A stretch of DNA of 46,224 nt, from NCBI GenBank assembly GCA_044507735.1, contig JBIQJB010000013.1, forward strand, positions 8,507-54,730. The letters are read 5' to 3'. The DNA comes from Nitrosopumilales archaeon (lineage in GTDB: Archaea > Thermoproteota > Nitrososphaeria > Nitrososphaerales > Nitrososphaeraceae). The notes under the pieces are model-generated. The model did not search any database and had not been told where the DNA came from. It saw nothing but the letters and a program-made list of their open reading frames with translations. The translations under genes and the position numbers were made by a program. Every line of letters begins with the position of its first letter. The stretch's first letter is position 1. Positions 8,576 to 28,561 of this stretch are shown here, piece by piece.

Positions 8576-9081
8576 TTTCTTTTAACCAAATTTCAAAAGC
8601 CAAGCCTGCATGACATGCAGTAAGCTCGACTTACTGCATTTACTTATCAATGATCACTTTTAAACATTTATTTCGTAAATTCTAAAACTTTTGGCAGATC
8701 GTGATCCTATACGATTTTTTCTGCTGCGCTTGATAGTTGTCTCTGCCTTGGGCATATGTGTACTCCATTTCTTACGCGCTGGACAATCCAAATAGTATCT
8801 GATACTGTATCTCCTGCTGCAAGCGCTATTCCAATGATCTGTTGTTATGAGACAAGCACTTAAGTTGATGGCGTTTCCAAACCAAAATCCTGCAAGAGCA
8901 ACTATCTCTTGTCCACCACACCGCATTTCGACTTTGCTAGTTGTTATGGTATCGTTCTCAAACTGCAGCTCGTTTGCAGGTACAAGATCGAATTGGAGAC
9001 TGCTGCTCACCGACACTGCCTTCAAGCGAAAGCACCAGCAGGCCTTCAAGAGTTCCAAGCATGTCAAAGCAAGCTTGTGCG

Positions 9082-10278
9082 TCATTGAGCATATGTGGTG
9101 GCCTTGCTCAGGACTTTTGCAAATTGGCGTATGTCGATATCCTTGAAAGGAGCTATTCTTACAGGCGCAGGTGGTTCCTGCTGCTGTGCCCTGTCCATCA
9201 TGCCCCTGCCGCGCAGAGTTTCAAGTATCTTCTCGCGTAGCTTGGGTGGGCAGATCCTGCTGTGGTATATTGACCCGAGTGATGCCATCATCATCTCCTT
9301 CAGGTGCTCGTCGCCCTTTTCTTCGTGGAAGTGAGGATTGCGGGTCTCCACTTGCATCACTTCGACACCCTTGTCCATTGCGTCTTGGTGCGTTGTCGGG
9401 AGGATGCCACCAAACTCTTCTAGCACGTTGATTATTTCATACGGTTCAATAGAGTAGCCGGAAGAAAACGTCAAGAGCTCGGCGAGCTTGAGGGACATAC
9501 AGTGTTCGCCTGAATTCCCAGTGCGCATGACTTCTGTTTCAAATCCCGTGTAGTATGAAATGAGTGAATTTAGGTGCTGGTTTGTCAGTTCTGACACACG
9601 CCCCCATTTGCTAAAATAGAGACCTGTCTCCGACATCTTTGGCTTGTAGATCCAAGATACCCTCACCATGGTATAATCTGTCTTTGACATTGCGATACCA
9701 GAAGCAAATATCTTGACGTATTCATTGACTGCGCCTGGTACATAGTTATCGGCGTCAATGAAGCCAACGTACTCTTTGCCTGCCATCTTGGCGAGCAGCA
9801 TTCCAAGAATCATGCCTTCGGCTTTGCCATTGCGGACAATGCCATCGGGATCAAGCATGCTTGCATAGCCGACTTGGTTCAGTGCTTCAGAGATTACGGG
9901 GTCGCGCTGGTGCACAATAATCGCATCGCGCCCTACAAACTTATTGAACTGCTGGAGTGCATCCCTCTCAAGCTTGTACCTATCAACGGGCTGCCGAGGG
10001 CTATTCGACACGATTATCACTAGACAGTCGTGTGGTACACCTGCAAGAACTCCTTCCAGGAGCCTCAGGCGCTCCCCCTTGATAGGGATGACAATTGCCA
10101 TCCTTCTCTCAATCTCAGAAATCTGGTCGTTTCCAACTCTGACAAGTGTCTCGGCCATAGACCTTCCATCATCAAAACCAGAATCAAGCTCATAGACACG
10201 CTGCACTCCATGCAGGCTAATAGCTCCGAATCGTTCAGTGTATCTAGGGACATCTAGCTTCATGATATGCTGGCACAA
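9082..10278 (-). CDS. mpgS: Mannosyl-3-phosphoglycerate synthase (GT55)
   Basis: LLEGVLAGVPH, VRNGKAEGMILG, GFIDADNYVPG, KWGRVSE, ETRNPHFHEEKG. Confidence 0.94.
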   Translation of the reverse strand: MCQHIMKLDVPRYTERFGAISLHGVQRVYELDSGFDDGRSMAETLVRVGNDQISEIERRMAIVIPIKGERLRLLEGVLAGVPHDCLVIIVSNSPRQPVDRYKLERDALQQFNKFVGRDAIIVHQRDPVISEALNQVGYASMLDPDGIVRNGKAEGMILGMLLAKMAGKEYVGFIDADNYVPGAVNEYVKIFASGIAMSKTDYTMVRVSWIYKPKMSETGLYFSKWGRVSELTNQHLNSLISYYTGFETEVMRTGNSGEHCMSLKLAELLTFSSGYSIEPYEIINVLEEFGGILPTTHQDAMDKGVEVMQVETRNPHFHEEKGDEHLKEMMMASLGSIYHSRICPPKLREKILETLRGRGMMDRAQQQEPPAPVRIAPFKDIDIRQFAKVLSKATTYAQ

Positions 10279-11016
10279 GAGAAATGCTCTGATTGCTTAT
10301 ATGACAACTAGCAAATTTTACTATACGAATGTACTTGACGGCCATGATTTTTCGGAAGTTACAAGCCATAGCTCTTTAAGGCGTGGTAGTTGACAGGACT
10401 CAACGTGGCTCTGGACCATTTGACATCCAAATGCAGAGTCTGGCAAATTTCCCAATAACGCAGGCATGCGTGGCAAAGTAGTAATCATTGCAAATCTCAT
10501 CCCATTGCGCCGTTGCTTGGACGACTTTTCTTTCAATTGAATATTCTTGATTTGACTACATTTAGCTTCGTGCTTTGATACCCTCACTGTCGATCAACTG
10601 GTATCTGTACAACGATCCCTAACCAAGCACATAGAGTGTTGTTATACGCTTATTTTGACATTATGAATGGCAGCTGGCAGGACGAATTAGAGAGACGATC
10701 GAAAGTAAAGACGGCGTCTATGTATGGTAACAGCGGAAGAAACTTTCAGTTTAAGACCTCTGCACATATATAGATCCAGCAATCAAGGTGAACAAAAATT
10801 CATCGAGCGGGGCTCTCACGGCCGACCGCTGTCAAAAGATGTCTGATGTTCTGCCACAACAACACGATCCCGATTTTTCCAAGCTTCTCCATACAACCAT
10901 GCTTGCCAAGATGAAATCGTAACAGGGAACCGATTATGCACCACGGATTTGGTCAGTTACTCGACAGAACATCCTGCAACAATTGTTTATAATGTCCTCA
11001 AATCAGTCTTCTAATT

Positions 11017-11178: not shown

Positions 11179-11833
11179 TAATTTGGAGATACTGCTAAGC
11201 GCAAGTCCAGCAGATGCTTGAGTGGCAAGTTGTCAAATTCCCACTTTCAACGCACGAGGGTACGCCCTCTCCTCATCCAGACTTCTGTACAATGCTCCTT
11301 CTGGTGAATGGCTGCTCCTCCTCCCCTCCCACATCCCAAGTCTCGTTTTCTACGCCACAGTACAGTTCCGTCACAGTTGCTCCTAACACACTTGCACAGT
11401 ATCAATTCGGACAGATACCGGAAGAGAAGAACAAGAAGCTATTATTCTACCCTACAGAGCAGTCGTCGATAGTCTAGAGCCTCTCCTGTTCCGCTACCTG
11501 TGGTGGTCTCTGCCGCTTCTTCGGAGTCTTTCAGCTCGTCCACTCTGCATAGCCTGTCAAATTCCAGGGCCATTTGTATGCCCATCTTCTGGACCTGTTC
11601 AGCTTGTTTTCTCGTACCGTTGCAGAGTTTCCTAGCTGACTCTGTTTATTCCGGCGCATCTTGCAAGACCCTTCCTCTACTGCTCATCCTCTTCTACTGT
11701 ATAGGTGTCGTTCAAATGTTCTGCAGCAATGAACATCGATGTGCCATCAAGCTACTGAGCTAAATGGTTGGTGGGTGAACCATTTGACGATTGCCGGAAC
11801 CCATGTTAGCTAGTCAGTATGAATGTTGCACAA

Positions 11834-12118
11834 TCATTCAGCGACCACCCTTGAATTAGTACTGCCGCTGTAAGTGATACTGGTCAATGTCGATGTCACT
11901 CCATTTATCGTCTTGATCTTCTTGATCAGTTCTTGAAATTTCGCCTCATCTTCTGCCTGCGCCTTCAGGATCAGGTCATAGATGCCTGTAGTTGTATGCG
12001 CTTCCAGCACACCATCAATTTCCCTTACCTCTTTTTCCACAGAAGAAATTTGATCGAATGCACAGTTTACAAATACGAATGCCAGAATCATACTATTCTC
12101 TTTTAATGCCCATCCCAT
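11834..12118 (-). CDS. Stand-alone Lrp/AsnC ligand-binding (RAM) domain protein
   Basis: AFVFVN...GVLEAHTTTGIYDLILK...GVTSTLTSI. Confidence 0.88.
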   Translation of the reverse strand: MGWALKENSMILAFVFVNCAFDQISSVEKEVREIDGVLEAHTTTGIYDLILKAQAEDEAKFQELIKKIKTINGVTSTLTSITYSGSTNSRVVAE

Positions 12119-13026
12119 GCATGTAATTTAAGGAACGCGGGGCCTATGGCAAATGTTGATAGGCGTCTATACCTCTATTGACGAATCTGACCCGGCATAC
12201 AAAAAATGCAATAATGGTGATTACAGTGAGAGAAATTTTATGATATCGTTGACTACCAAGTTGACACTTGGATGTATGGTTCCAATGAAGACGATCTTTT
12301 TGAATTTTTTCCTGATGAATCCGGGCCACGATCTTGAAACTAACATACAAACCGCCAAATGCTATTGCAATCGGGGTGGTAAAGGGAAAGCAAATGCTGC
12401 TTGGTCAGAAATCTGCCTGATGTGCGGACCGGAATCCGGGTTCTTGCTGACGCATGATGGGTGGCAGCAATATTCGCTACGGTGACGGAATATGCTTCTT
12501 CTTATCGAGTTTCTGGTCTATGAGAATATCATCCACAATGCGCCGCCAATTCCCAGCATGCCGACAATGAGATCCCGTTTCTGTAGGATAGCATCATCCA
12601 AGAGTTTGCCCTAGTCTTGGGTTACCCGAGAAACATGTGATTGAGGGTCCTGTGGAGGACATTCAAAAGATCGCCTCGATTATGCCGCACGTCGCCAGCT
12701 AGAGCGGCACCTGGAAGGTCAATGAGAAACTTCTGTAGGCCGAATAATAGGAAACATCTCCTGCCATGCGTATGCCTGAAAAAAGTAATTCGGCCCAAGG
12801 TAACAAGAAGCTCGATATGCTGGCTAGCACAAGCGCGGTTTTTTCACTTCTTCTGACTGTCATGCCTGCATCAAAGAAAAGGATTGTTCGTGACCCAAAG
12901 CTCGCCTTGGTGGCTTATTGCTCTGAAAGTCCAAAACAAAGAAAACGACGGCTGTGGGCTCCGAGATATCGTGTGGTCCTGCTACACAAGGCGTATAGCA
13001 GATCACGCGATATCTTTACTAGATTT

Positions 13027-14731: not shown

Positions 14732-14806
14732 GGGCCCGTAGCGTAGTCAGGATATCGCGGCGGTCTTCGGAACCGCAGGCCAAGGGATCGAAGCCCTTCG
14801 GGCCCG
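14732..14806 (+). tRNA. tRNA-Arg(TCG); integration target, kept intact after integration
   Basis: GGGCCCG...CGGGCCC acceptor stem; anticodon arm GCGGT-CT-TCG-GA-ACCGC; T-arm AAGGG-ATCGAAG-CCCTT; TATTATAT box about 25 nt upstream. Confidence 0.95.
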
Positions 14807-14810
14807 CTTA
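14763..14810 (+). repeat. att site (48-bp direct repeat, copy inside the tRNA)
   Basis: GTCTTCGGAACCGCAGGCCAAGGGATCGAAGCCCTTCGGGCCCGCTTA, identical to 25537-25584. Confidence 0.97.
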
Positions 14811-15707
14811 TCTCATAGGCATTGTGACCTCGTTTCTACTGCTGTCGATTCCTCACTAATAGGGAAATGTTCTCTACTAATAGAGAATGATCGGGGTCTT
14901 GTAGGATTCGAGAAATATCTTAGGGAGAAGAGGAGGTGGAATACTGCTAGAAGGACATTATCGCTGGCTAGGAAGTATGCTCATGTCTTGACAACTAGGG
15001 ATGCGAGTGAGCTTCTTACCTTGAGTCCTAGGAAGAGGAATCATACTATGTGTGCTCTTTCTTCCCTGTCTAAGTTCTACGGCTGTTATGACCTGTGGAA
15101 GGAGATTATCAGGAAGCATGACCTGAAGTGGTCAGAGGCGAACTCGCTAGAGGCGTTTCATGCTATCTTTAGTGATGAGAAGAACTATAGAGTCATGATA
15201 GAATGGCTTCAGCGGGCTTGTGCTAGTGTCCCTAGGTCGTATGCTAACCTGTTGCTTTTTGATGCTCTTACTGGCCTGCGTGCGGATGAGGCTTGTCAAA
15301 GCATTAGGCTTCTTCATTCGAATAAGGGCGACTATCTAAACAAGGAGCACATGATCCTAGAACATTACAAGATCCCTGAAGTCTTTATTCGCACGACCAA
15401 GAAGGCTTTCATCAGTATCATGACAGAGAAAGTTCTACAGGTAGCTCAGGAGTCTGGAGTTTACAACTATAACACGATGCGACATATGCTCAGAAGGAAA
15501 GGACTTGGTATGAACATGGGATATTGCAGAAAGATCTTTGGAACCTACCTAAGGATGAACGGGATAGAGTCAGAGATCGTTGATCTTCTTGAAGGTAGAA
15601 TTTCGCAGGAGGTTTTCGTCCGTCATTATTTTAGACCTGATTTTCAAAAAGAAATAGGGAGGATTAGGTCAGTTCTAGAGAGGCTTTATGCTGAGATCGT
15701 TGTCTGA
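14811..15707 (+). CDS. int: C-terminal fragment int(C) of an SSV1-type tyrosine integrase
   Basis: Frame is open from the att site to 15707. TGLRADE (Arg I), YCRK (Arg II), LEGR, FVRHY (catalytic Tyr). Confidence 0.92.
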   Translation, partial: SHRHCDLVSTAVDSSLIGKCSLLIENDRGLVGFEKYLREKRRWNTARRTLSLARKYAHVLTTRDASELLTLSPRKRNHTMCALSSLSKFYGCYDLWKEIIRKHDLKWSEANSLEAFHAIFSDEKNYRVMIEWLQRACASVPRSYANLLLFDALTGLRADEACQSIRLLHSNKGDYLNKEHMILEHYKIPEVFIRTTKKAFISIMTEKVLQVAQESGVYNYNTMRHMLRRKGLGMNMGYCRKIFGTYLRMNGIESEIVDLLEGRISQEVFVRHYFRPDFQKEIGRIRSVLERLYAEIVV

Positions 15708-15922
15708 TTCTTAGGGTTGGGTGGTTGGGACTCGAAGACTTGGTACGGGTCATCCGTAAAGATATCTAGAACCATGCGACCTTCTTCTTCCCTGCTCTGA
15801 TATCGTAGAACACCTGAACCTTCATCGCTCAAGACTCTTAGGATCGCTTGACATAGCACTTCATCCCTGATGCTTCCGATTCTTCTTTCAGTCGTCCTTT
15901 GATTCAAAAGTTCGCTGTTCAT
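15686..15922 (-). CDS. Hypothetical element protein (78 aa)
   Basis: ATGA-type overlap with 15919-16104; convergent with int(C). Confidence 0.55.
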   Translation of the reverse strand: MNSELLNQRTTERRIGSIRDEVLCQAILRVLSDEGSGVLRYQSREEEGRMVLDIFTDDPYQVFESQPPNPKNQTTISA

Positions 15923-16104
15923 ATACTTATCACCATGTAGCAGTTAGGACAACAGTGGTCAGTTTTTAGTCGAAGCTGGTCTACGAGTCTACAATTGTTG
16001 CAAAGGAAATCCTCTCCGCAGCAGCAAAGGTCATTTTGCTTTAGGATGTTCATCAGTGCCATTTTTACGTCTTCGATTGACATGAGACTGATTGAAGCGT
16101 TCAT
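15919..16104 (-). CDS. Small Cys-rich element protein (8 Cys)
   Basis: CCC...CNNC...CCPNC. Confidence 0.55.
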   Translation of the reverse strand: MNASISLMSIEDVKMALMNILKQNDLCCCGEDFLCNNCRLVDQLRLKTDHCCPNCYMVISI

Positions 16105-16277
16105 GTTGTCGCCCGCCCAAGTAGGGCTGCGTATTAAAATTTTTCCAATAGCACGATATGGTATTTAATAGAAGTTTAAACTTGGTTTAGACTAATGTGG
16201 ATAAAAATTCACTACAAGAATCAATACTCCGGTCAATAATCTGATCATCTTGATTCTTCAGGAGGCATGAAGCTTGG

Positions 16278-19200
16278 CTAGGAACGCATATTGTATTTTG
16301 TTATGACATCAACATCCTTGTCCGAAAGACCATATAGCTCATAGACAAATTTGTCAAGTTCATTATCAGTTCTGCTAATTGCTATCGAATATTGATTCTC
16401 TATATAACCTACCATCTTATCATGTAGTTTTGTAAGATTAGAAATATGACTAGCGGTCAGATTTGGAACAGGAATAATTTCGACCATGGATGAACTGAAA
16501 TTTACTCCACCCTGTATGCCCGCTGTTCTGAATGCTTCTCTCATGTAGAAGCCAATTAGCTTCGAATTCAGTAGGGCATTTAGAGCTTTCAAGTTCGCTT
16601 TCTTGGGATTCCTGATGATTATCGTAGACTTGCCTGCAACATGCGAACCATCTTCATCTAGAAAAGATTCGAAATATCTAATCCCTGTAATGATTAGCTT
16701 TGGCGAACTTGACTGCTCAAATCGCTTAGGCATGAGCTTCTTAAATTCTGCTTTTCGAACATACGGATACTTGTATTTCCTTTTGATATAGCTAGTTGTC
16801 TTTTTGCCCCATAGGGATTGAAAGCGGTCTATTGTGCCAGTATTTATCAGCTTGAATTCCTTTTCATTGGCTTTTCCGTCGTAGACGAGCTTTGCCAATT
16901 CATACGCTTCTGAAACGGTAAACGGATTTTCAACGTCACAATATTCTGGAGCTAGCTGGTGCTTTTGATTCAATATTATTAGAAGTGTGTTGATATATTT
17001 GCTAATCAGTATCCCCCAATTATCAAGTTCAAGGATCTTGCGTGGTGCGGGACTCATAGCTATCACTTGATAATCTGCTCTGAAATAATCGACCATTACC
17101 TCTGATGAGAGATCTTGCTTCTTGAAGAAAGATATTACTGGAGAATTATCCGCATCTTGAAAAACATCAATTTCATCGCAATTACATAATCGAATCAATT
17201 GCTTAGCAAACATGTGTCTTAGGGACTCGCCATAGCCAATCGATAGCCACTTGTTCGGAGAAATAAAACAGACTATCCCCCCTACAGTTGTAATCTGCAT
17301 AGCTCTTTCAAAGAATGGAACATATAGATCCCAATTGCCAACAGCGCTATCATACGTCTCAGACAGTATGTCTCTGAATTTTTGTTGATTCTTTACCATT
17401 TCTTCCGAGTCAACATATGGGGGATTTCCAATCACGACATCAAATCCCCTCTCAAACTTTGGCAATTCTAAGTCAAATATCTCGTAGAATTCAAAACCAT
17501 AGTGAAACGGCTTTAGACGTAAAAATTCCTGTCTGTTTATGTCTATCCCAAGTTTATGACTAATTTCAATGTAGGCCTCCCTATCTAGCTGTCTTTGGAG
17601 CTTATCTCTGACATCCTCAATTCTTTCTCTTAATTTTCGTGCTTCATTGCCAAATGCAGCACCATAAGTAGATTTCAGGTCTACAAAACGTGATAGCAAC
17701 AGTTTTGCAGATTCTTCTGAGCCTGTGAAATCATCTAGCGTAACCTTTGTCTTTCCAAAGGCTTCCATGTCCACGTATCCTATTAGCGAATTTCCGACCT
17801 CTAGGTTATACTCGATGTTCGGTAGTGGTTCTATGTAGTCGCTTGTATAGGATTCAATTAACCATAACCACAAGCGCAGATGCGCTATCTCTACTGCTCT
17901 TGAGTTGATGTCTACGCCGTAAAGCGATCGTAGTATCTGCTTTTTTAAATAGATGTCTGTAAAGGGCGTACCTAAATTATCATTAACATTTCTAGCAAGC
18001 TCGAATAAGACATTCGCCGCAGCAAGTAGAAAACTACCTGACCCACACGCATTGTCACAGACTGTCAGCTTTAGGATAATGTCATTGAGAATTACTTTTT
18101 GTGAAGTAGCAGGCAAGATGAGAATTTCATCTACACTCGATAACAATTCACTTTTTTTGTAACCTCTGTTCTTTTCTAAGAAATAATTTGACTTTTCAAG
18201 GATTATTGGATAGATGCAATTCTTGGCAATGTATTTGGTTATTTCTCTAGGCGTGTAGTATGCTCCAGTTCCTTTCCTATCCTTCGCAGTCATAGACCTT
18301 TCAAAGATGTAGCCTAGAATTTCAGGGTCAATACTTTCATCTTCACCATCTAACGATTCATATCTAGCAAATCTGAATCTACCCAGAAAATCAATTATCC
18401 GCTTAAGAATTTCTGCCTTTATCCGATACTGTTGATGCTTTCTTTCTACCTCGAGCGGTTCGAAGAGTGAGCCATTGAGGTATGGGATGTCGGCGAAGCG
18501 AGGGTCAATGCTACCTCTATTTTCTTTCTTGGTATTCATTACTTCAAAGAACAATTGAAATAGCTTTAGATTCAGGTTATGCTCTTCTAAATTGCGCAAA
18601 TACTCTAGAACCTCTCCTCTTATGATATTGATAGTTTCAAGGAACTTGATGAAAATGAGTCTGTTTACTGTTATCTGTGCTATTTCTTCTCTGTCATCTT
18701 CATTATCCACGTTCAAGATAGATTGCACCAAAGATTCAGACTTTGGTATGCGATCAATTCCATGTAATAGGTCATTATATTCCTCATAGAATTTCTTGCT
18801 GATTTCCTCAAGCTTCCTCTTTGGTAGTCTCTCATGTCCTATCAGGTACTTTTTTATTCGATCAAACTTTTCCCTGATGTTTAATTCCGCTATTATCTGT
18901 CTTTCCTTATTGATGAATATCCAAAGTAGTCCGTCTGTCGCAATTCCAAAGTCAAATTCCTTTTCGACTTCTACTAGCCTGAAAACGCCCATAATCTGAT
19001 TAACTGCACCGTCTTTAGATTTTGTCTTCAAATCTGCATTCATCGGCTTTGCTTCAACCAGTATTTTCAGGTCTTCATGTTGAAGTGCATAATCGACCTT
19101 CCGTTCACCGTCTGGTGTTTGGAATTTTCTGTTTCTACCTATTAGTTTGAGCTTTAGGATATCAAATAAAATCCCATCAATCAGGAAGCTTCTTGTAAAT

Positions 19201-19340
19201 TCCTCGGGATCCTGTCGCTCATTAATGTCATTGGTCCTCAATTCGCGCTTTTGTTCAAAGACCCTTTTTCTGCCCTCAAGGGTAAGACGAACCTGCACAC
19301 TGCTAATTAGGTCAGAAATTTCAGACGTTTCTACAGGCAC
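16278..19340 (-). CDS. Type IIG restriction-modification enzyme (Eco57I-like fused REase-N6A MTase-TRD)
   Basis: N-terminal VDYAL...LVEAK nuclease motif; GAYYTP (motif X), DNACGSGSFL (motif I), GNPPY (motif IV); TaqI-C-like C-terminus (LNALLNSKL). Confidence 0.92.
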   Translation of the reverse strand: MPVETSEISDLISSVQVRLTLEGRKRVFEQKRELRTNDINERQDPEEFTRSFLIDGILFDILKLKLIGRNRKFQTPDGERKVDYALQHEDLKILVEAKPMNADLKTKSKDGAVNQIMGVFRLVEVEKEFDFGIATDGLLWIFINKERQIIAELNIREKFDRIKKYLIGHERLPKRKLEEISKKFYEEYNDLLHGIDRIPKSESLVQSILNVDNEDDREEIAQITVNRLIFIKFLETINIIRGEVLEYLRNLEEHNLNLKLFQLFFEVMNTKKENRGSIDPRFADIPYLNGSLFEPLEVERKHQQYRIKAEILKRIIDFLGRFRFARYESLDGEDESIDPEILGYIFERSMTAKDRKGTGAYYTPREITKYIAKNCIYPIILEKSNYFLEKNRGYKKSELLSSVDEILILPATSQKVILNDIILKLTVCDNACGSGSFLLAAANVLFELARNVNDNLGTPFTDIYLKKQILRSLYGVDINSRAVEIAHLRLWLWLIESYTSDYIEPLPNIEYNLEVGNSLIGYVDMEAFGKTKVTLDDFTGSEESAKLLLSRFVDLKSTYGAAFGNEARKLRERIEDVRDKLQRQLDREAYIEISHKLGIDINRQEFLRLKPFHYGFEFYEIFDLELPKFERGFDVVIGNPPYVDSEEMVKNQQKFRDILSETYDSAVGNWDLYVPFFERAMQITTVGGIVCFISPNKWLSIGYGESLRHMFAKQLIRLCNCDEIDVFQDADNSPVISFFKKQDLSSEVMVDYFRADYQVIAMSPAPRKILELDNWGILISKYINTLLIILNQKHQLAPEYCDVENPFTVSEAYELAKLVYDGKANEKEFKLINTGTIDRFQSLWGKKTTSYIKRKYKYPYVRKAEFKKLMPKRFEQSSSPKLIITGIRYFESFLDEDGSHVAGKSTIIIRNPKKANLKALNALLNSKLIGFYMREAFRTAGIQGGVNFSSSMVEIIPVPNLTASHISNLTKLHDKMVGYIENQYSIAISRTDNELDKFVYELYGLSDKDVDVITKYNMRS

Positions 19341-19423
19341 TTATTTTAGAAGAAAATTCTGTAGTTATTATACTTTAGGCAATCGAGAATACTATAAGAA
19401 AATCTTCATTTCTGAATCTGATT

Positions 19424-19768
19424 TCATGATTGGTTATTCTTTTCCCTATAGTATTGGTCTATCCTATCGTCTCTACAAATGTCGTATTTGGTCATTCCTT
19501 CACTTTCGCAGAGCTCCTCTTGATTCTTCCTTAGTTCGATATCGCAGGTAGGGTCTCCTTCAGGTAGGCTTTCTAGGCATGAATCTGTGAATTCATTGAG
19601 CATTTGATTGAGTTCAGCTTCGAGTGGTGCCAACTTGGCCTGCCTTTCTGCTTCGATCCTTGATAGCTGGTTATAGGCGTTGAAGGTTGAAATGGCTCCT
19701 AAAATGATGCCAGCGGTCACTATTCCTATGATGATCTTGTTTGAGGTTTTCATTTGGCCCGTTGGCAC
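19424..19768 (-). CDS. Single-TM membrane-anchored element protein
   Basis: N-terminal TM (IIIGIVTAGIILGAI), coiled-coil-like stretch, four Cys. Confidence 0.7.
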   Translation of the reverse strand: MPTGQMKTSNKIIIGIVTAGIILGAISTFNAYNQLSRIEAERQAKLAPLEAELNQMLNEFTDSCLESLPEGDPTCDIELRKNQEELCESEGMTKYDICRDDRIDQYYREKNNQS

Positions 19769-19841
19769 TGATTAGGTCGTAAATAAACGTAGTCGCTGAA
19801 TAACAGACATGACTGACATAAATGAGCACAAACATGTCAGT

Positions 19842-21326
19842 TTAGCTGACATGAGCTGTATGAGAAAAGAATAGTGCTTCCGAGTTGGAAGCAAATTGTC
19901 TTATTGTCTCAATTGAATTGCCCTCTATTTTCCTCTCTATAGTATTATGATCTTCTTGTATGGCTAAATAAGTTGGAGTTTTGTCTAAGACAGCAAGACA
20001 ATCCTTCTTCAGAGCTATCCCAAAGTAACAATAGCGTTTGTCTCTTCCAATCCTCTTCTGCTTGTGGCTGATTCCTAGTGCCTTGAGTTCTTCGCCTAAC
20101 TTTCGTTCATTGATGAATGATGTTCCTTCTTTTTCGCAGTATGCTTTGAAGGCTTCCCTAAGCTTGTCCGATTCTATCCATAGGTTCTCGTTTTCTGGCT
20201 GTAGTATGCACTCTTCTTCTATGAAGGTCTTGATTCTGCTAGCACCTAGCTCATACTGACGTTTGATCTCTTCTACGTCATCATCTTTGAAGCCATGCTC
20301 ATCCCTGAGCTTCTTCAAACCTTTCAGAGCTAAGTTCAATAAGCCAGAGAGCTCTTCTTCTGTTGTCAATTTCTCCTTTAACGTCTCATCTCTGTTTTTT
20401 CCTTCAAATGTCCTGAAGAATGGAATTATTACCCATCGTCTAAAATAGGCATAGCTCTTGTCCGATGTCTCAGGGATCTGATTTGCAGAGAAGATCAGCT
20501 TGGCGTAGGGTTTGAAGGTAAATGGCTGTTGATGTTTCCGTTGCGCTCTGATTCTGTCACCCGAGACTACTACTTTGAAAGTTCCTGCATCAGTGATCTT
20601 GTCTGCTCGGAGATCTGCAAAGATGTTAGCCATCTTGCCATAGAGTTCAGCGGAAGCATAGCGATCCGAAGTCAGGTCGTGAAGTGATACATTGCTCACA
20701 TTTTCTGCGCCTAGGAAGGCCTCTATGAGCCCAAGAAAGACGGATTTTCCATTTGACCCTTCACCGCACAGCATGAATCCTTTTTGGTATCTAGCTGATT
20801 TCAGGAGGAGATAGCCTAGCATCTTCGATACTGTAGCCATGTATTCTGGTTCTATTGTGGAGCGCAGGAACTTGATGATGTTAGGACATTTCGCTTTCTC
20901 GTTGTAGATTATTGGAATCTGGGTCACCGAAAGGTAGTTTGGGTCATGCTCCTTTCTGAATTCTCCTGTTTGTATATTCAAAAGTCCATTCTTCAGATTC
21001 AGAATATTGGGATCCTTGTCGAATTCTTCTCTGGGAGTGTATGTCATCGATTTTATTGTCTCGATAACTTCATTGCGCATGTGGTTGGTAATCTCGTAGC
21101 CGCCTAGGTTTTGGAGCTCTGCTAGGATTTTTTCTCTCCCGCCCGGTACATAGACTCCATCACGATAGTATAGGATCTCTCCTGTATCCTGCAAAGTACG
21201 AATGAAAATCCTATTGAGGATCTCTTCAACTAGAGCTCCTTTCTTGTCCGTTTCTGAAGATTTTCGATCCCTCAGGACTTGCATTATTGCAATTTCTGCT
21301 TCGTCTTGCAAACCGAATGCTATCAT
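19842..21326 (-). CDS. Phage/plasmid P4-family (D5-like) SF3 helicase; no recognisable primase domain
   Basis: YYRDGVY, LNLKNGLLNI (D5_N), Walker A GEGSNGKS, FKVVVSGD, KLIFSANQIP, RRW; wHTH-like C-terminus. Confidence 0.92.
   Translation of the reverse strand: MIAFGLQDEAEIAIMQVLRDRKSSETDKKGALVEEILNRIFIRTLQDTGEILYYRDGVYVPGGREKILAELQNLGGYEITNHMRNEVIETIKSMTYTPREEFDKDPNILNLKNGLLNIQTGEFRKEHDPNYLSVTQIPIIYNEKAKCPNIIKFLRSTIEPEYMATVSKMLGYLLLKSARYQKGFMLCGEGSNGKSVFLGLIEAFLGAENVSNVSLHDLTSDRYASAELYGKMANIFADLRADKITDAGTFKVVVSGDRIRAQRKHQQPFTFKPYAKLIFSANQIPETSDKSYAYFRRWVIIPFFRTFEGKNRDETLKEKLTTEEELSGLLNLALKGLKKLRDEHGFKDDDVEEIKRQYELGASRIKTFIEEECILQPENENLWIESDKLREAFKAYCEKEGTSFINERKLGEELKALGISHKQKRIGRDKRYCYFGIALKKDCLAVLDKTPTYLAIQEDHNTIERKIEGNSIETIRQFASNSEALFFSHTAHVS
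19895..20002. repeat. Inverted iteron pairs flanking an AT-rich spacer (candidate replication origin)
   Basis: ATTGTCTTATTGTCT (19895-19909) versus AGACAGCAAGACAAT (19988-20002): 13/15 inverted match with a 78-bp spacer. Confidence 0.55.
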
Positions 21327-21493
21327 TTCCTGCGCCTCCTTTGGTTGAAGGGATTATCGGGTGAAGGACATCGATGTGGACGCATATCAGCAGGGTCTAG
21401 AGGAATAGCATTACCTCTCTTCGAAACAATCAGGTCACAAAACGTTATAACCCGATTGCAGTATCGACAGCAAACTTCTCTGAATCTAGCCAT
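21323..21493 (-). CDS. Small (56 aa) CxxC...HxC Zn-finger protein, absent from the ORF track
   Basis: Own translation: MARFREVCCRYCNRVITFCDLIVSKRGNAIPLDPADMRPHRCPSPDNPFNQRRRRK; its stop overlaps the helicase ATG (ATGA). Confidence 0.8.
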   Translation of the reverse strand: MARFREVCCRYCNRVITFCDLIVSKRGNAIPLDPADMRPHRCPSPDNPFNQRRRRK

Positions 21494-21506
21494 TTCCCTC
21501 ACTCCT

Positions 21507-21839
21507 TCAATGATAGCGAGTACATCTCTCGCAGACTTGAGGTACTCTCTTCTCTGACCAGACAGTTGTTGAAGCAGGATTTTCTTTACAGTCTGAGCAA
21601 ATAGGAAGGGGCTCTTTAGGTTCTGGAAGCGAAGGTTGAACTCGACTTATTGCGAATTCCTTGTCACAATGTGTACAGTAATGCTTGTATTCTAATCCCC
21701 CGAATCGCTCGCAGGTGATTGGCTTCTCGCAGTCAGGGCAGAGTGGAAGTCTGGAGTCTATAGGTTCATGCCTGATAACTAGGGCTTCTAGTTCTTTTAT
21801 GCGCTTTTCAAGCTGTTCTATCTGCAGTTCTTCGTTCAT
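21507..21839 (-). CDS. Double Zn-finger protein with N-terminal coiled coil
   Basis: CPDC, CTHC, CSDC, CERC. Confidence 0.75.
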   Translation of the reverse strand: MNEELQIEQLEKRIKELEALVIRHEPIDSRLPLCPDCEKPITCERFGGLEYKHYCTHCDKEFAISRVQPSLPEPKEPLPICSDCKENPASTTVWSEKRVPQVCERCTRYH

Positions 21840-21856
21840 CCTTTTTCACCATCTCC

Positions 21857-22015
21857 TCAAGCTTTCTGAACGATCAAACGTTGTTCATCACATTCCATCT
21901 TGACGTAATCTCCTTTGCCCACGTGAAGCTGTGATACGAATTGCTTCGGGATCACCAAAAGATAGCTTCGTTCGTTTGGCAAAGCCTGAATTTTTCTGAA
22001 TTCAACTAATGACAT
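21857..22015 (-). CDS. AbrB/MazE/SpoVT-family DNA-binding protein (52 aa), absent from the ORF track
   Basis: Own translation: MSLVEFRKIQALPNERSYLLVIPKQFVSQLHVGKGDYVKMECDEQRLIVQKA (RKIQ..S..VIPK....L...GD.V pattern). Confidence 0.85.
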   Translation of the reverse strand: MSLVEFRKIQALPNERSYLLVIPKQFVSQLHVGKGDYVKMECDEQRLIVQKA

Positions 22016-22385
22016 CGATACTAGACATGCTAGTCTATAACTAGAGAACTAATGCTCCCTTGGGCATCGATGTTGGTTACGCCTTCGGCCAATTCTTGAA
22101 ATCGGAGATTTGTGCTCACATGGTGTGAGCAGACCTTTATCCTGACCCTTATGCGATGGCCTTCGGTTCTATCTCTCTCTAAAGCTACAACGTTACCCAA
22201 AGACCCGGACTTGTCAGGAAGTTCAGCTGAAATCAGTTCAGCTAGAGAATGTCTAATTCTATGGGCTATTTTTGGCTGTAAACTTTCCAGCAGGAAATTT
22301 AAACATATCACTAGCGAGTTATAATTTTGCTCATATGGAAATGAGCAGTAGTTCTCTACTCTAAGGGACAAGTTTCCTCATTCTT

Positions 22386-22411
22386 GTCATATCGATATGA
22401 CGTGCACGTCA
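22386..22411. promoter_or_regulatory. Two overlapping perfect palindromes upstream of the tape-measure gene (putative operator)
   Basis: GTCATATCGATATGAC (22386-22401) and TGACGTGCACGTCA (22398-22411); SD AGGAGG at 22418-22423; ATG at 22431. Confidence 0.55.
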
Positions 22412-22430
22412 ATTCTTAGGAGGCACTCTA

Positions 22431-23855
22431 ATGGCTTCTGAAGAGGTTCAGCTAGCGTGGAAGCTATCGATTGCTGGAGCTGAAGACGTTAAGAGAAGGT
22501 TATCGGAGCTTCATGAGCAGTTCAATCGTGGGGAGATTTCTGTCGAGCAATATTCGAAAGAGCTCAATAAACAGGGAGGAGTCCTTAGAACTCTTACCAA
22601 TCAACACGCACTTCAAAATAGGCTCTGGCTAGCTCAGCACCCGACAATAAACCAGCTAAGTAGGACTCTTTCAGGGTTCAATCGGGTTTTGTCAGCCACT
22701 ACTACAGCGATGACTGCTATCAATATAGCTCAGCTTCTTATGAGGACAAGCTCTGGTCAGTTGATAGAACTTCAGAATCAGCTAGCAGAAGCAGAGCGCA
22801 ACTATAACGCTGCAATAGATCCTGAGAAGAAAGAAGAATACGCTAGGCAGATCGCTTCAATCAAGGCAGAACTAGAACAAGCAAATGCACAGATGGCAGC
22901 AGATAAAACGCAAGGAATCATATCATTTGCAACGAGCATTGCTCTCATAGGAAGCTCTGCTATCCAGACTGCGACTCAGTTGAAGACTTCGGGAACAGGC
23001 TTCGCTATTTTTAGTGGAGGACTGAGGACTGCGACTGGAGCTCTCAGAAGCATGTGGGCTGCACTTGGCCCCGTAGGATGGGCTATCCTAGCTCTATCTA
23101 TCATAATCCCTCTAGTCATTGAATATTGGGATGAACTAGCAGCAGCCTTCGGAGCCTTTATCGATTTCATTAGACCGGGCTTCGAGTGGCTAGCAGGTCA
23201 GTTCCTCTCAGGATTTCAGGCTCTATGGGAAGGAGCAGGGAAGTTCCTAGAGTCATTCGTCAAGGGAGCTGTTGCTGCATGGGATGGCTTTGTTTCAGGT
23301 CTAGAGGATATATGGCTAGGTCTTCAGGCTGGCTTCGAAGCGATGTGGCTAGGAGTAGTTGCCATGTCGCAGAGCTTTATGGATTTCCTGCAAGGAGCGT
23401 TTACTGCCTTCTGGGATTCAGTGAAAAACCTAACGACTAACGCAGCGAATAGCGTAGTGAATACAGTCTCAGGAATGGTCAATAGCATAATAGCTTCAGT
23501 GAGGAACGCTCTAGACTGGCTAGCTAAACTACCGGGCAATGTCGCTAGCGGAATTTCGAACTTCCTCAGTGGCAATCCTTCTCCTCCGCCATCATCAGGC
23601 TCTAGTGGAATTAAGAAGGGAGCTACAGGGCTTCATACTATAGCCGATAAGCCCATGCTCTTCTTGGCAGGGGAAGCAGGACAACCTGAAGAAGTCACGA
23701 TTCGCCCTATAGGAAGGACAGGCACAAGCACGACTACTACAACACCTACTATCAATATCTACGTAGAAGGGAGCATTCATGCAGAAAGGGATCTCGAACA
23801 GGTTCTAGATAGATATGGAATCCGAGAAGCTAGAAGGAGGGGTTGGAAGGCATGA
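22431..23855 (+). CDS. Tail tape-measure-like protein (474 aa)
   Basis: Helical, Ala/Gly-rich. LGPVGWAILALSIIIPLVIEYWD motif; Trp spacing of 18-11-11-22 residues; C-terminal ATG...KPMLFLAGEAGQPEEVTIRP and INIYVEG typical of TMP C-termini. Confidence 0.8.
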   Translation: MASEEVQLAWKLSIAGAEDVKRRLSELHEQFNRGEISVEQYSKELNKQGGVLRTLTNQHALQNRLWLAQHPTINQLSRTLSGFNRVLSATTTAMTAINIAQLLMRTSSGQLIELQNQLAEAERNYNAAIDPEKKEEYARQIASIKAELEQANAQMAADKTQGIISFATSIALIGSSAIQTATQLKTSGTGFAIFSGGLRTATGALRSMWAALGPVGWAILALSIIIPLVIEYWDELAAAFGAFIDFIRPGFEWLAGQFLSGFQALWEGAGKFLESFVKGAVAAWDGFVSGLEDIWLGLQAGFEAMWLGVVAMSQSFMDFLQGAFTAFWDSVKNLTTNAANSVVNTVSGMVNSIIASVRNALDWLAKLPGNVASGISNFLSGNPSPPPSSGSSGIKKGATGLHTIADKPMLFLAGEAGQPEEVTIRPIGRTGTSTTTTTPTINIYVEGSIHAERDLEQVLDRYGIREARRRGWKA

Positions 23856-24163
23856 CTCTGTATGAAGTGATCTGCAATGGCAAGACCTACATCATGAAGA
23901 AGCCACTGACAGTAGGAGAAGTTCAGGCTATCTGGAAAGGCATGGAAGAACACATGAAACTCTTCATAGAAGGTCAAAAAGATCCTGAAAAATATCTTCA
24001 GTTCGTCACTTCAGAACGTCAACAGTGGCAGATGGTGACCGCGACCCTGAAGAAATGCCTGAATCTGACAGACGAAGAGATCAGCTCAATGTCCTATCTG
24101 GAAGCGAGAAGCCTTTTCAGTGGTATCCTAACATTCAGCGCAAAGATAACCAAGGTGCAATAG
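23852..24163 (+). CDS. Putative tail assembly chaperone
   Basis: ATGA overlap with the TMP stop. NGKTYIMKKPLTVGE...LNLTDEEISSMSYLEARSL resembles TAC patterns (recognised by eye). Confidence 0.5.
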   Translation: MTLYEVICNGKTYIMKKPLTVGEVQAIWKGMEEHMKLFIEGQKDPEKYLQFVTSERQQWQMVTATLKKCLNLTDEEISSMSYLEARSLFSGILTFSAKITKVQ

Positions 24164-24208
24164 CAAAAGAAATAATCTGATGGTTACTTTCCAACAGTTA
24201 GAAGGATA

Positions 24209-25320
24209 TTGAGCAGAGGCGGGGGAAAGAGTAATTCAGAAATAAAAAATTCCTACGAGGAATGGTTGGCGAACCAAGGCGTTGTAGATAAGCTCAAGAT
24301 AGCAATTGAAAAGGTAGGATTTCCGCTGGAAGTCGCAGCAAGGAGAATTATTGACAAAAATGATTACAGCATCTACTCAGATCGATATTACTCCCAAATT
24401 AACCCAACGACAAAAGAAGAATCATGGAGGGAAATAGACATTTACGCAGAGAAAATTTTCCCGAGTCTGAAGATTGGCGAAAGTGAGATCTTATTTTCTG
24501 TGAATCTTATCGCAGAATGCAAGTATTCATCAACAAACGATTTCTTTGCCTTCGAGACCGATTATGTCAATGATTGGGGGTTCCCACCCCTGTTTGGATC
24601 TGGGAATCTGTTTGCGCCACTTCCAGACAAACACGCATTTGCTCATTTCTTTCCTTTTCCAATAACGATTCATAATATAGCAGAGGTCGATGTTGGTAGC
24701 ATGACCTTCCATACCTCAGATCGAACTATTTACGAAGCAGCTAATCAACTTGCTAATGCTGTAGCTTACTTTGCGAACGTAATCGACGACGAACATAGCG
24801 CACTCTACGAACATTATGAAGAAGAAGAGCAAACAATTTCCAAATACAAAACTTATGTTAGGAAATTAAGAGACGAGATGAATCTCGCCTAATCAACAGA
24901 CAACAATATAACGAGAAAGTGAACAAGTTTGCTATGGAGATACTCTCACGAGGATATGTTTACTATGTAACCTTTTGGATTCCTATCATTGTTTTGGGCA
25001 AAAACAATGGTTTGCTAAAAGTTGAGATGCAGGAGGACAAGATTACCGACATCACTGACATAGGATATGGGGTCTATCCGTTCAGACCAAACATTACTCC
25101 GCCTTATTTGAAGAATCTCGTTTATTCGGAAAATGAATTATCGATAGTAATCTGCAACCTCAAGTACTTAGAGGAGGTCTTGTCAAACATTGATAAAGGA
25201 ATGAATAATCTGCTGAAGAGCGTGAAGGAGAAGCTAACTAGACGTCCCTTCCTTGTCATAAGTGAAATAATGAGAGATTTTCATAATTACGAAGCAAGAA
25301 ATCCTAACCTTTGGAAATAG
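24209..25320 (+). pseudogene. PD-(D/E)XK nuclease-family gene split by a frameshift (ORFs 24209-24892 and 24919-25320)
   Basis: GFPLE...REIDIYA...LIAECKYS motifs. The second frame is open from 24862, overlapping the first ORF's end. Confidence 0.65.
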
Positions 25321-25353
25321 TTATTGGGAGATAAGAGCTATTAGCGACTCCCA

Positions 25354-25584
25354 ATGACCTCATCTACAATGACTGAGGACATCAAGCCAGCACTTCTAAC
25401 TAGGACAGAAATAGCTTATCTCTCAGGCAAACTCCCTAACCTTACAAACATTCAGAAGTCAAAACTCAATTACAAGATAAAGAAGAAGCTTGAGGTTTTT
25501 GAAAACGTAGAACTGCCCCTCATAGCGGAGTCAGGAGTCTTCGGAACCGCAGGCCAAGGGATCGAAGCCCTTCGGGCCCGCTTA
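25354..25584 (+). CDS. int: N-terminal fragment int(N) of the split integrase (reads on to 25791 in the integrated state)
   Basis: 77 codons end exactly at the end of the att repeat, in frame with int(C) at 14811. Confidence 0.85.
25537..25584 (+). repeat. att site (48-bp duplicate of the tRNA-Arg 3' half)
   Basis: Identical to 14763-14810. Confidence 0.97.
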
Positions 25585-25590
25585 ACAACA

Positions 25591-28513
<2,923 letters not shown>

Positions 28514-28561
28514 CGAAGGTTCTTTGCACGTCCTTCTTTTAATGCTTTAGAGGTCCAATAA

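Follow-up and report, generated by a model that had tools for sequence, protein, structure and literature searches.

Tail genes in a capsid-less integrated element of Nitrososphaeraceae, a possible satellite of tailed archaeal viruses

Why would a small integrated element that appears to lack the genes for a virion carry two genes for the assembly of a viral tail? The question is posed by a stretch of 46,224 nucleotides (the window; assembly GCA_044507735.1, contig JBIQJB010000013.1, positions 8,507 to 54,730 of the forward strand) from an archaeon of the Nitrososphaeraceae, in which an element bounded by attachment (att) repeats occupies positions 14,763 to 25,584. A preliminary description of this DNA, made from its letters and open reading frames (ORFs), had seen in the element its own tape measure protein (TMP) and tail assembly chaperone (TAC), and had proposed that it is a virus satellite. 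Having followed the two genes and the element around them through related genomes, we consider a satellite of a siphovirus-like (tailed) virus of thaumarchaea to be the best reading of this small capsid-less element, at about even odds.

The case begins with the 474-aa product that the preliminary description had called a TMP. Among the 22 PHROG families listed as its matches, 16 are TMPs, 14 of them at E ≤ 1e-3 and the best at 3.4e-17. A profile built on alignment A2, which joins the window protein to the nine nearest homologues included (38–72% identity), recovers solved chains of the same kind, namely 9m8o_M (Gp14, 7.3e-12), 9j1k_J (FtbJ, 1.9e-4) and 8v3w_B ('Tape measure protein CD1366', 1.8e-3), with weaker matches to 6v8i (TMP gp57), 8kea (tmp) and 9d93 (TMP). 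The family profile matches 10 of the 238 genomes of the archaeal family, the element's own genome and one unpublished genome included. A search for the closest TMPs in thaumarchaeal proviruses, which the preliminary description had advised, led to homologues within the tail modules of two proviral loci of a single genome (L014 and L015, in G003); in the window, the chaperone gene alone adjoins that of the TMP. Judged by these homologies the 474-aa protein is a genuine TMP. The further suggestion that it would give shorter tails finds no support, its 474 aa comparing with 452 and 522 aa for the proviral homologues. In a tree of TMPs the proteins of elements and proviruses are interleaved, the TMP of one small element (L018) joining those of the G003 proviruses (support 89/87), which indicates at least one passage of tail genes between proviruses and small elements.

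The second gene is tied to the first by an ATGA in which its start overlaps the TMP stop (translational coupling), and it too has homologues in the proviral tail modules, in line with its earlier assignment as a TAC. The strongest evidence that the family may be so named is a predicted frameshift in those homologues: in both L014 and L015 the gene has a GAT_TTT_TTA slippery site and a −1 frame open for 76–78 codons, and the extension thus encoded is 48% identical between the two loci, with no counterpart found by tblastn (E ≤ 1) in the window, the loci then compared or the own genome minus contig C12. Programmed frameshifting between a G and a GT product reportedly marks tail chaperone genes, a rule ascribed to Xu, Hendrix and Duda in 2004. 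The L015 homologue also matches phrog_1442, a TAC family, weakly (1.7e-3). By comparison, the −1 frame past the stop of the window gene is open for 5 codons, and for 3, 17 and 44 codons in the small elements L016, L018 and L013, without similarity to the proviral extension, so that the small elements have a chaperone of the G form only. With a TAC profile we find the gene directly 3' of the TMP gene in all five small elements (window, L016, L017, L018 and L013).

Structural comparison adds less. The AlphaFold2 (AF2) model of the window chaperone (pLDDT 89.2) is a β-hairpin with four helices, and in a comparison with 48,161 solved chains the first rank goes to 5ir0_B (Z 6.0, rmsd 3.8 over 87 aa), the ORF19 protein of a Vibrio cholerae element resembling the phage-inducible chromosomal islands (PICIs), which has been identified as the TAC of the PICI-like element (PLE) PLE1 and compared with the HK97 TAC, 2OB9 (PMC12987554); taken alone, this fold match is a lead only. 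In BFVD, 12 of the 50 rows shown for the model are named tail assembly chaperone, none of them at E ≤ 1e-3; Foldseek against the PDB found nothing, and the TAC profile returned chance-level rows only from PDB sequences. A predicted complex of TMP and TAC scored 0.00, which is no evidence either way. On balance the coupled gene is most likely a TAC of the gpG kind. A G-only chaperone placed after the TMP was not found described in the literature searched.

Do relatives of the element occur outside proviruses? The preliminary description had set its proposal against the possibility that they are always full proviruses, with head and tail modules. Such proviruses do exist. L015 encodes a 297-aa tail protein of phrog_290, a tail-completion protein of phrog_5 (5e-11), fibre-like proteins and a 591-aa distal protein, and homologues of five of its tail-module proteins, 58–78% identical, are found in L014; it continues into L019, with a 503-aa large terminase subunit (TerL; phrog_5909, 7.4e-10), the two loci together lying between two tRNA genes. 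In L039 and L040 a TMP-like gene is paired with the same tail-protein family. Besides these, however, four small elements share the TMP-then-TAC cassette with the window (~9.8 to ~16 kb where bounded); three of them have the same superfamily-3 helicase (S3H) as the window element (57%, 41% and 41% identical in L016, L017 and L018), and the TMPs of the four are only 24–31% identical to its own.

L016 lies in tRNA-Glu between 52-nt att repeats spaced 14,157 nt apart, and its split SSV-type integrase can be restored to 394 aa. L017, an insertion of ~9.8 kb, differs in its tyrosine integrase and has an S3H as well as a 333-aa TMP; its empty site is found in the own genome of the window element, where the two flanking genes stand 13 nt apart on contig C24. 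For L018 (~16.2 kb; tyrosine integrase and S3H) the empty site is on contig C3 of that same genome; L018 encodes a helix-turn-helix protein and a TerL divided between ORFs of 324 and 228 aa (11314–12974; phrog_2 at 7.2e-10, phrog_5909 at 9e-5). The TerL of L013 is also in two ORFs (341 and 244 aa, 14994–16735), 59–61% identical to the L018 pair, and the first ORF of each is 45–48% identical (L018 48%) to the N-terminal half of the proviral 503-aa TerL; the break seems to be conserved, and a functional division of the gene or a recoding site could account for it in place of decay. Among 30 ORFs scanned in PHROGs (10 from L016, 8 from L018, 2 from L013 and 10 from the window) none matched a capsid, portal or tail-tube family. 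A very diverged capsid gene is possible in the larger relatives, where several ORFs lack an assignment; the window element, unlike them, has no room for one. The window element thus belongs to a conserved family of capsid-less Nitrososphaeraceae elements. One genome, G107, holds both L016 (on its contig C21) and the provirus-like tail module L040 (on its contig C7), which consists of a 662-aa TMP-like protein, a 292-aa tail protein and a 532-aa distal protein. The two could be a satellite and its helper, but their TMPs are only distantly alike.

The same comparisons bear on the idea that the cassette has nothing to do with tails, the element being an integrative plasmid or cryptic element whose TMP-like membrane protein, an ancient exaptation, serves for example DNA transfer or vesicle export. 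The TMP has one strongly hydrophobic segment (residues ~216–228) and no significant Pfam family, one source labels a homologue 'uncharacterized membrane protein', a TAC-family gene is found outside any virus context on contig C7 of the own genome, and most described thaumarchaeal integrated elements (48) are cryptic (PMC6563490). Yet a gene for a chaperone adjoins that of the TMP in five of five small elements, the tree mingles their TMPs with those of proviruses, two of the elements have added a TerL from the same kind of provirus, and we see no conjugation or vesicle gene in the window element; we think a function of this sort quite unlikely.

A second copy of the element shows how recently it has travelled. 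Contig DATLXY010000296.1 (L023), from a Nitrososphaera sp. metagenome-assembled genome and identical to contig C296 of G216, which represents another species of the genus, is collinear with window positions 16363–28557 and has the element at the same tRNA site. Between the copies of the element there are, over 9.2 kb, 21 substitutions and a single 1-nt indel (at 18871), whereas the chromosomal genes beyond its right end (25591–28513) are 85–86% identical (dS ~0.8); the drop in identity begins at 25583–25584, the last bases of the right repeat. Near-identical copies in such diverged flanks point to recent horizontal transfer, and from this comparison we conclude that the element moved or was exchanged very recently between well-separated hosts, at the same tRNA site. 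Such a transfer needs a route, which the element does not encode, and it argues strongly against a decaying relic.

All 21 substitutions lie within 23061–23856, in the TMP gene and the start of the TAC gene, and the TMP is the only gene that varies between the copies (14 synonymous and 5 non-synonymous changes). Thirteen of them crowd into the final 60 nt of the TMP gene, where the ribosome-binding site and the ATGA overlap lie, a cluster that suggests a recombination patch or hotspot. The indel, an insertion in the L023 copy, lies in the restriction–modification (R-M) gene, which may be frameshifted there unless the insertion is an assembly error.

The boundaries agree with the 10.8 kb first described: the exact 48-nt direct repeats are spaced 10,774 nt apart, a tRNA-Arg(TCG) gene runs with its 3' part into the left one, and GC content is 0.37–0.44 inside the element as against 0.47–0.52 in the flanks (a second tRNA gene of the window, tRNA-Arg(CCT), lies at 818–893 on the minus strand). 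The integrase noted in the preliminary description is there too, with matches to PF16795 (3.7e-6; 27.4 bits, cut-off 27) and phrog_5127 (5.8e-11) for the product of 14988–15707 and with TGLR, HMLRR and RHY motifs supplying the R, HxxR and Y residues; what had not been stated is that integration splits it. In the circular form the ORF at 25354 joins 14811–15707 into a single 375-aa ORF with no internal stop. Because the attP site lies within the gene and the ORF is restored in frame, the enzyme is an SSV-type (type I) integrase, cut in two on integration. Its restored form is 43% identical to that of L016 over nearly the full length. The archaeal satellite pSSVi has an SSV-type integrase as well. 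Elsewhere in the own genome, contig C20 (L001:1-20000; 23.7 kb, outside the window) holds a second mobile element, with an intact 367-aa SSV-type integrase (8576–9679) that is 51% identical to the window integrase over the C-terminal part, the homology beginning at about window position 14832; it also encodes ParA (10044–10925) and DUF499 and DUF1156 genes, and its intact integrase suggests that it is an episome.

Downstream of the chaperone gene, what had been described as a nuclease owes that label to a D77...E103-x-K105 motif in a 227-aa protein. The protein has no family match in Pfam, PHROGs or PADLOC, and its AF2 model is unusable (pLDDT 36.5). The 227-aa ORF and the 133-aa ORF that follows correspond to a single 368-aa ORF on C20 (5691–6797), and a 113-nt stretch in the window faces 38 codons there, which fits a 1-nt frameshift. 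The fused homologue has PDDEXK_GAPS4 as its nearest named cluster in the protein atlas (0.83), a lead at most. Of two small ORFs near the left end, the 61-aa one has a homologue in L017 (38% identical).

The absence of capsid, portal, terminase, tail-tube and baseplate genes, part of the original claim, holds for Pfam and PHROG scans of ten window ORFs; the remaining five products (52–78 aa) were scanned in Pfam only. As far as such scans tell, the element lacks the genes to build a virion alone. What they point to is the make-up of a satellite: integrase and att sites, a replication module, and less than a full set of virion genes.

The gene content also allows a humbler origin, as the leftover of a tailed provirus that kept TMP and TAC by chance and no longer functions. 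Full proviruses of the same archaeal family do have homologous TMP, TAC and TerL genes, the nuclease-like gene lies in two frames, the integrase is split, and the terminase-only NitKor-E1, with small (TerS) and large subunits, has been read as a likely relic (PMC6563490). The preliminary description had rejected a decayed provirus, citing intact att sites and intact core genes. The repeats are indeed exact; the intactness of the core genes needs qualification, the integrase being split by design and the nuclease-like gene lying in two frames. The rejection itself is upheld by other evidence: the split integrase restores in frame in the window as in L016, dN/dS of the TMP gene is 0.11, a sign of selection on it, and a near-identical copy lives in a second species between flanks 85% identical. 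Moreover, the order TMP then TAC, without T extension, is kept in five diverged elements, unlike the proviral order, and a simple deletion cannot produce it. Decayed, non-conserved virion leftovers, as a defective provirus would have, are not what these sequences suggest, and we regard a deletion remnant as highly improbable.

The leftward gene block was described as an AbrB protein, two zinc fingers, the helicase, a membrane protein and a Type IIG R-M gene (Table 1). Helicase and R-M gene are borne out; the AbrB match falls just under the Pfam cut-off, the zinc fingers show Cys motifs without a significant Pfam match, and the 114-aa membrane protein is putative, with no family match in Pfam, PHROGs or PADLOC. 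The S3H, in which no primase domain is seen, is likely the replication protein. The R-M enzyme matches Eco57I (1.4e-34), MmeI_Mtase, N6_Mtase and TaqI_C in Pfam and REase_MTase_IIG in PADLOC (3.5e-61), and is thus predicted to fuse nuclease, methyltransferase and specificity domains. Repeat scans of the presumed control region found nothing above chance. A 113-aa ORF within it (22030–22371) has no matches and is probably no gene; it was rejected as the AbrB gene in favour of the 52-aa ORF.

Table 1. Coordinates, within the window, of the features of the integrated element and its tRNA target
Feature	Position	Strand	Basis
tRNA-Arg(TCG), integration target; 3' part regenerated by attL	14732..14807	+	ARAGORN; direct-repeat overlap
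attL, 48-nt exact direct repeat	14763..14810	.	Repeat match
Integrase, C-terminal part, SSV-type split	14811..15707	+	In frame from attL; listed ORF starts TTG 14988
Two small ORFs, 78 and 61 aa, no assigned function	15686..16104	-	ORF list
Type IIG restriction–modification enzyme, 1020 aa	16278..19340	-	Pfam and PADLOC
Putative membrane protein, 114 aa, hydrophobic N-terminal segment	19424..19768	-	Sequence
Superfamily-3 helicase (D5_N and DUF5906)	19842..21326	-	DUF5906 1.1e-23, D5_N 6.8e-16, phrog_864 1.2e-100
Two Cys-rich (zinc-finger-like) proteins, 110 aa (21507–21839) and 59 aa (21323–21502)	21323..21839	-	CxxC motifs
AbrB/MazE-like DNA-binding protein, 52 aa, first gene of leftward operon	21857..22015	-	PF04014 5.3e-5, 23.5 bits, under 24.7-bit cut-off
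Divergent intergenic region, 415 nt, presumed control region	22016..22430	.	Gene layout
Tape measure protein (TMP), 474 aa	22431..23855	+	PHROGs, structure-chain profile, proviral tail-module homologues
Tail assembly chaperone (TAC), gpG type without T extension, 103/106 aa	23852..24163	+	AF2 fold, proviral homologues
Putative PD-(D/E)xK protein in two frames, 227 and 133 aa	24209..25320	+	Motif; fused 368-aa ORF in C20
Integrase, N-terminal part; reads through attR	25354..25584	+	In-frame junction of circular form
attR, 48-nt exact direct repeat	25537..25584	.	Repeat match; identity to second host's contig ends exactly here

The presence of an R-M gene beside the tail genes raises the possibility that the element is an unpackaged, plasmid-like cryptic element whose TMP and G-only TAC act as decoys, poisoning the tail assembly of infecting viruses and so protecting the host. 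A chaperone of G form, where the proviral homologues are G/GT, would suit a decoy; the Type IIG enzyme would be a second defence gene; variation confined to the TMP in otherwise near-identical copies is what an arms race could leave; the window element has no packaging gene; and bacterial mobile elements are reported to interfere with tail assembly (PMC11364771, PMC10884400; Rta, PMC12987554). Defence of this kind nonetheless leaves the move between species with almost no sequence change unexplained, and the relatives with TerL, L018 and L013, look equipped for packaging. The reading also overlaps with that of a satellite, PLE11 combining interference with satellite spread. We hold it to be unlikely as a full account.

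Against the satellite reading itself stand several observations, some of them about the genes. The integrase is split in the integrated state, so that for excision it must be reconstituted or assisted; the nuclease-like gene is possibly defective; and no terminase or recognisable pac or cos function is seen in the window element. The window TAC has no significant Pfam or PHROG match, 2 of 63 TAC-family members match phrog_1346 'tail protein' in a PHROG scan, the best fold match of the chaperone model scores Z 6.0, short of the guide value of Z 8 and no better than an unrelated human chain, and the gene is without a T extension and stands 3' rather than 5' of the TMP gene, the reverse of the order in phages. 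Finally, an orphan TAC-family gene of 100 aa occurs on contig C7 of the own genome (L002:11654-11956; profile E 6.4e-23). Its neighbours are an ABC transporter, FtsX, a dienelactone hydrolase, methyltransferases and a spermidine-synthase-like gene; with these metabolic neighbours and no other virus gene nearby, it was rejected as part of a provirus.

Other points on that side concern the helper. Searches of the own genome, which is 97% complete, gave no hit for PF03237 (Terminase_6N), PF05065 (Phage_capsid) or PF03354 (TerL_ATPase) and, the TMP apart, no homologue of the head and tail proteins of the proviruses, so no resident helper is seen. IMG/VR yielded no relative when searched with the TMP, the TMP alignment A2 and an exact 38-mer of the helicase gene, nor did the metagenome contigs of JGI with the alignment and the 38-mer, and the 64 CRISPR spacers of the own genome are without a match in the element and in the related loci. 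The S3H as a query in IMG/VR retrieves two distant viral contigs only (23–29% identity). Ten sequencing runs from four studies contain at least 0.69 of the element's sampled words, with no RNA run listed. The spacers come from an array on contig C12 (53–4294; 65 repeats of 30 nt). Spacer 2 matches the own genome's contig C21 at 2568–2599 (32 of 36 nt), near a 776-aa P-loop ATPase and N stretches, and that contig may be another mobile element.

If the element is a satellite, its life cycle could run as follows. The AbrB-like and Cys-rich proteins would control the divergent 415-nt region. Infection by a helper would bring about excision, the integrase being reconstituted or supplied from elsewhere (an intact 367-aa relative exists on C20), and the element would then replicate by means of its own S3H and enter capsids made by the helper. 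The G-only chaperone would keep the element's TMP in solution, and this TMP would compete with that of the helper for baseplate and tail tube and take its place inside the tube. In lambda the TMP is bound by G and the tube protein by T; here the helper's G/GT protein would supply the T domain that recruits the tail-tube protein. The outcome could be chimeric tails that serve the element, a disturbance of the helper's own tail assembly, or both, and relatives with a TerL would additionally redirect packaging. Extended to the whole family, the proposal makes its members the first satellites of archaeal viruses with tails, spreading between species in hijacked virions with their own TMP and G-only chaperone in the helper's tail, having arisen independently of the Vibrio PLEs and including richer members with a terminase of their own; this wider version we put forward tentatively, with doubt slightly the heavier side.

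How does the element compare with known satellites and cryptic elements? Its closest counterpart in function is the Vibrio PLE; in lineage it is the cryptic integrated element of thaumarchaea. The Vibrio elements PLE11 and PLE1, as described in the text of PMC12987554, are also small, integrated and capsid-less, with their own TMP and TAC and anti-virus cargo, and there too the TMP is a fast-changing gene; in PLE11 the satellite-encoded TMP and TAC build chimeric tails, both interference and spread having been shown. The best solved match of the window TAC model, 5ir0, is itself a Vibrio PLE structure (ORF19). The window element differs in its archaeal host and split SSV-type integrase and in having no baseplate hub homologue, capsid-remodelling gene or Rta homologue; the likeness lies in gene content, and chimeric tails are only inferred for the archaeal element.

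P4-like and PICI satellites resemble it in layout, with an integrase, regulators, D5_N/S3H-type replication, defence cargo, a size of ~10 kb and a tRNA target. They remodel capsids or redirect packaging (Sid/Psu, TerS, Cpm). The window element has no gene of either kind, and the likeness extends to layout and shared S3H families. The EPIP satellites of Mycolicibacterium also encode a TMP, and altered tail lengths are reported for them; unlike the window element they are bacterial, use a serine integrase and have TerS, adaptor and scaffold genes in addition (PMC12822802).

Among archaea, the statement in the preliminary description that no equivalent is known needs qualification. Archaeal satellites have been described, namely pSSVx, pSSVi and the putative SRCEs, all of them of spindle-shaped viruses (bioRxiv 10.1101/2025.02.15.638363). 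Like the window element, pSSVi and pSSVx (satellites of Saccharolobus fuselloviruses) and the haloarchaeal SRCEs have a replication module of plasmid type together with a virion module that is not complete; theirs, however, is a spindle-virus ATPase or major capsid protein, in place of the TMP and TAC of a tailed virus. For a satellite of a tailed archaeal virus the statement holds: none was found in the literature searched, which included three surveys of viruses of archaea or of ammonia-oxidizing archaea and covers the field incompletely.

The thaumarchaeal cryptic elements catalogued by Krupovic et al. in 2019 (PMC6563490) share with the window element small size, att boundaries, an integrase, S3H-type replication and R-M cargo, and one of them, NitEve-E3, is reported with a split SSV1-like integrase as well. 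NitKor-E1, with TerS and TerL and no other head–tail gene, is called enigmatic there. In the main text of that survey 'tape measure' occurs twice, for proviruses only, and no cryptic element with a TMP or TAC is mentioned, although its supplementary tables may overlap with the elements described here.

Bacterial satellites shape virus ecology, defence and gene flow, and in archaea only those of spindle-shaped viruses have been described. Tail piracy was demonstrated only in 2025–26, in Vibrio PLEs. Should the satellite reading prove true, it would extend tail piracy to archaea, and to ammonia oxidizers of soil; through the related G/GT–TMP modules it would offer a handle on the uncultured tailed viruses of Nitrososphaera, and it would suggest a new reading of the 'enigmatic' thaumarchaeal cryptic elements with terminase or tail genes. 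It would also give a route of gene transfer between species to a lineage without a known transfer mechanism.

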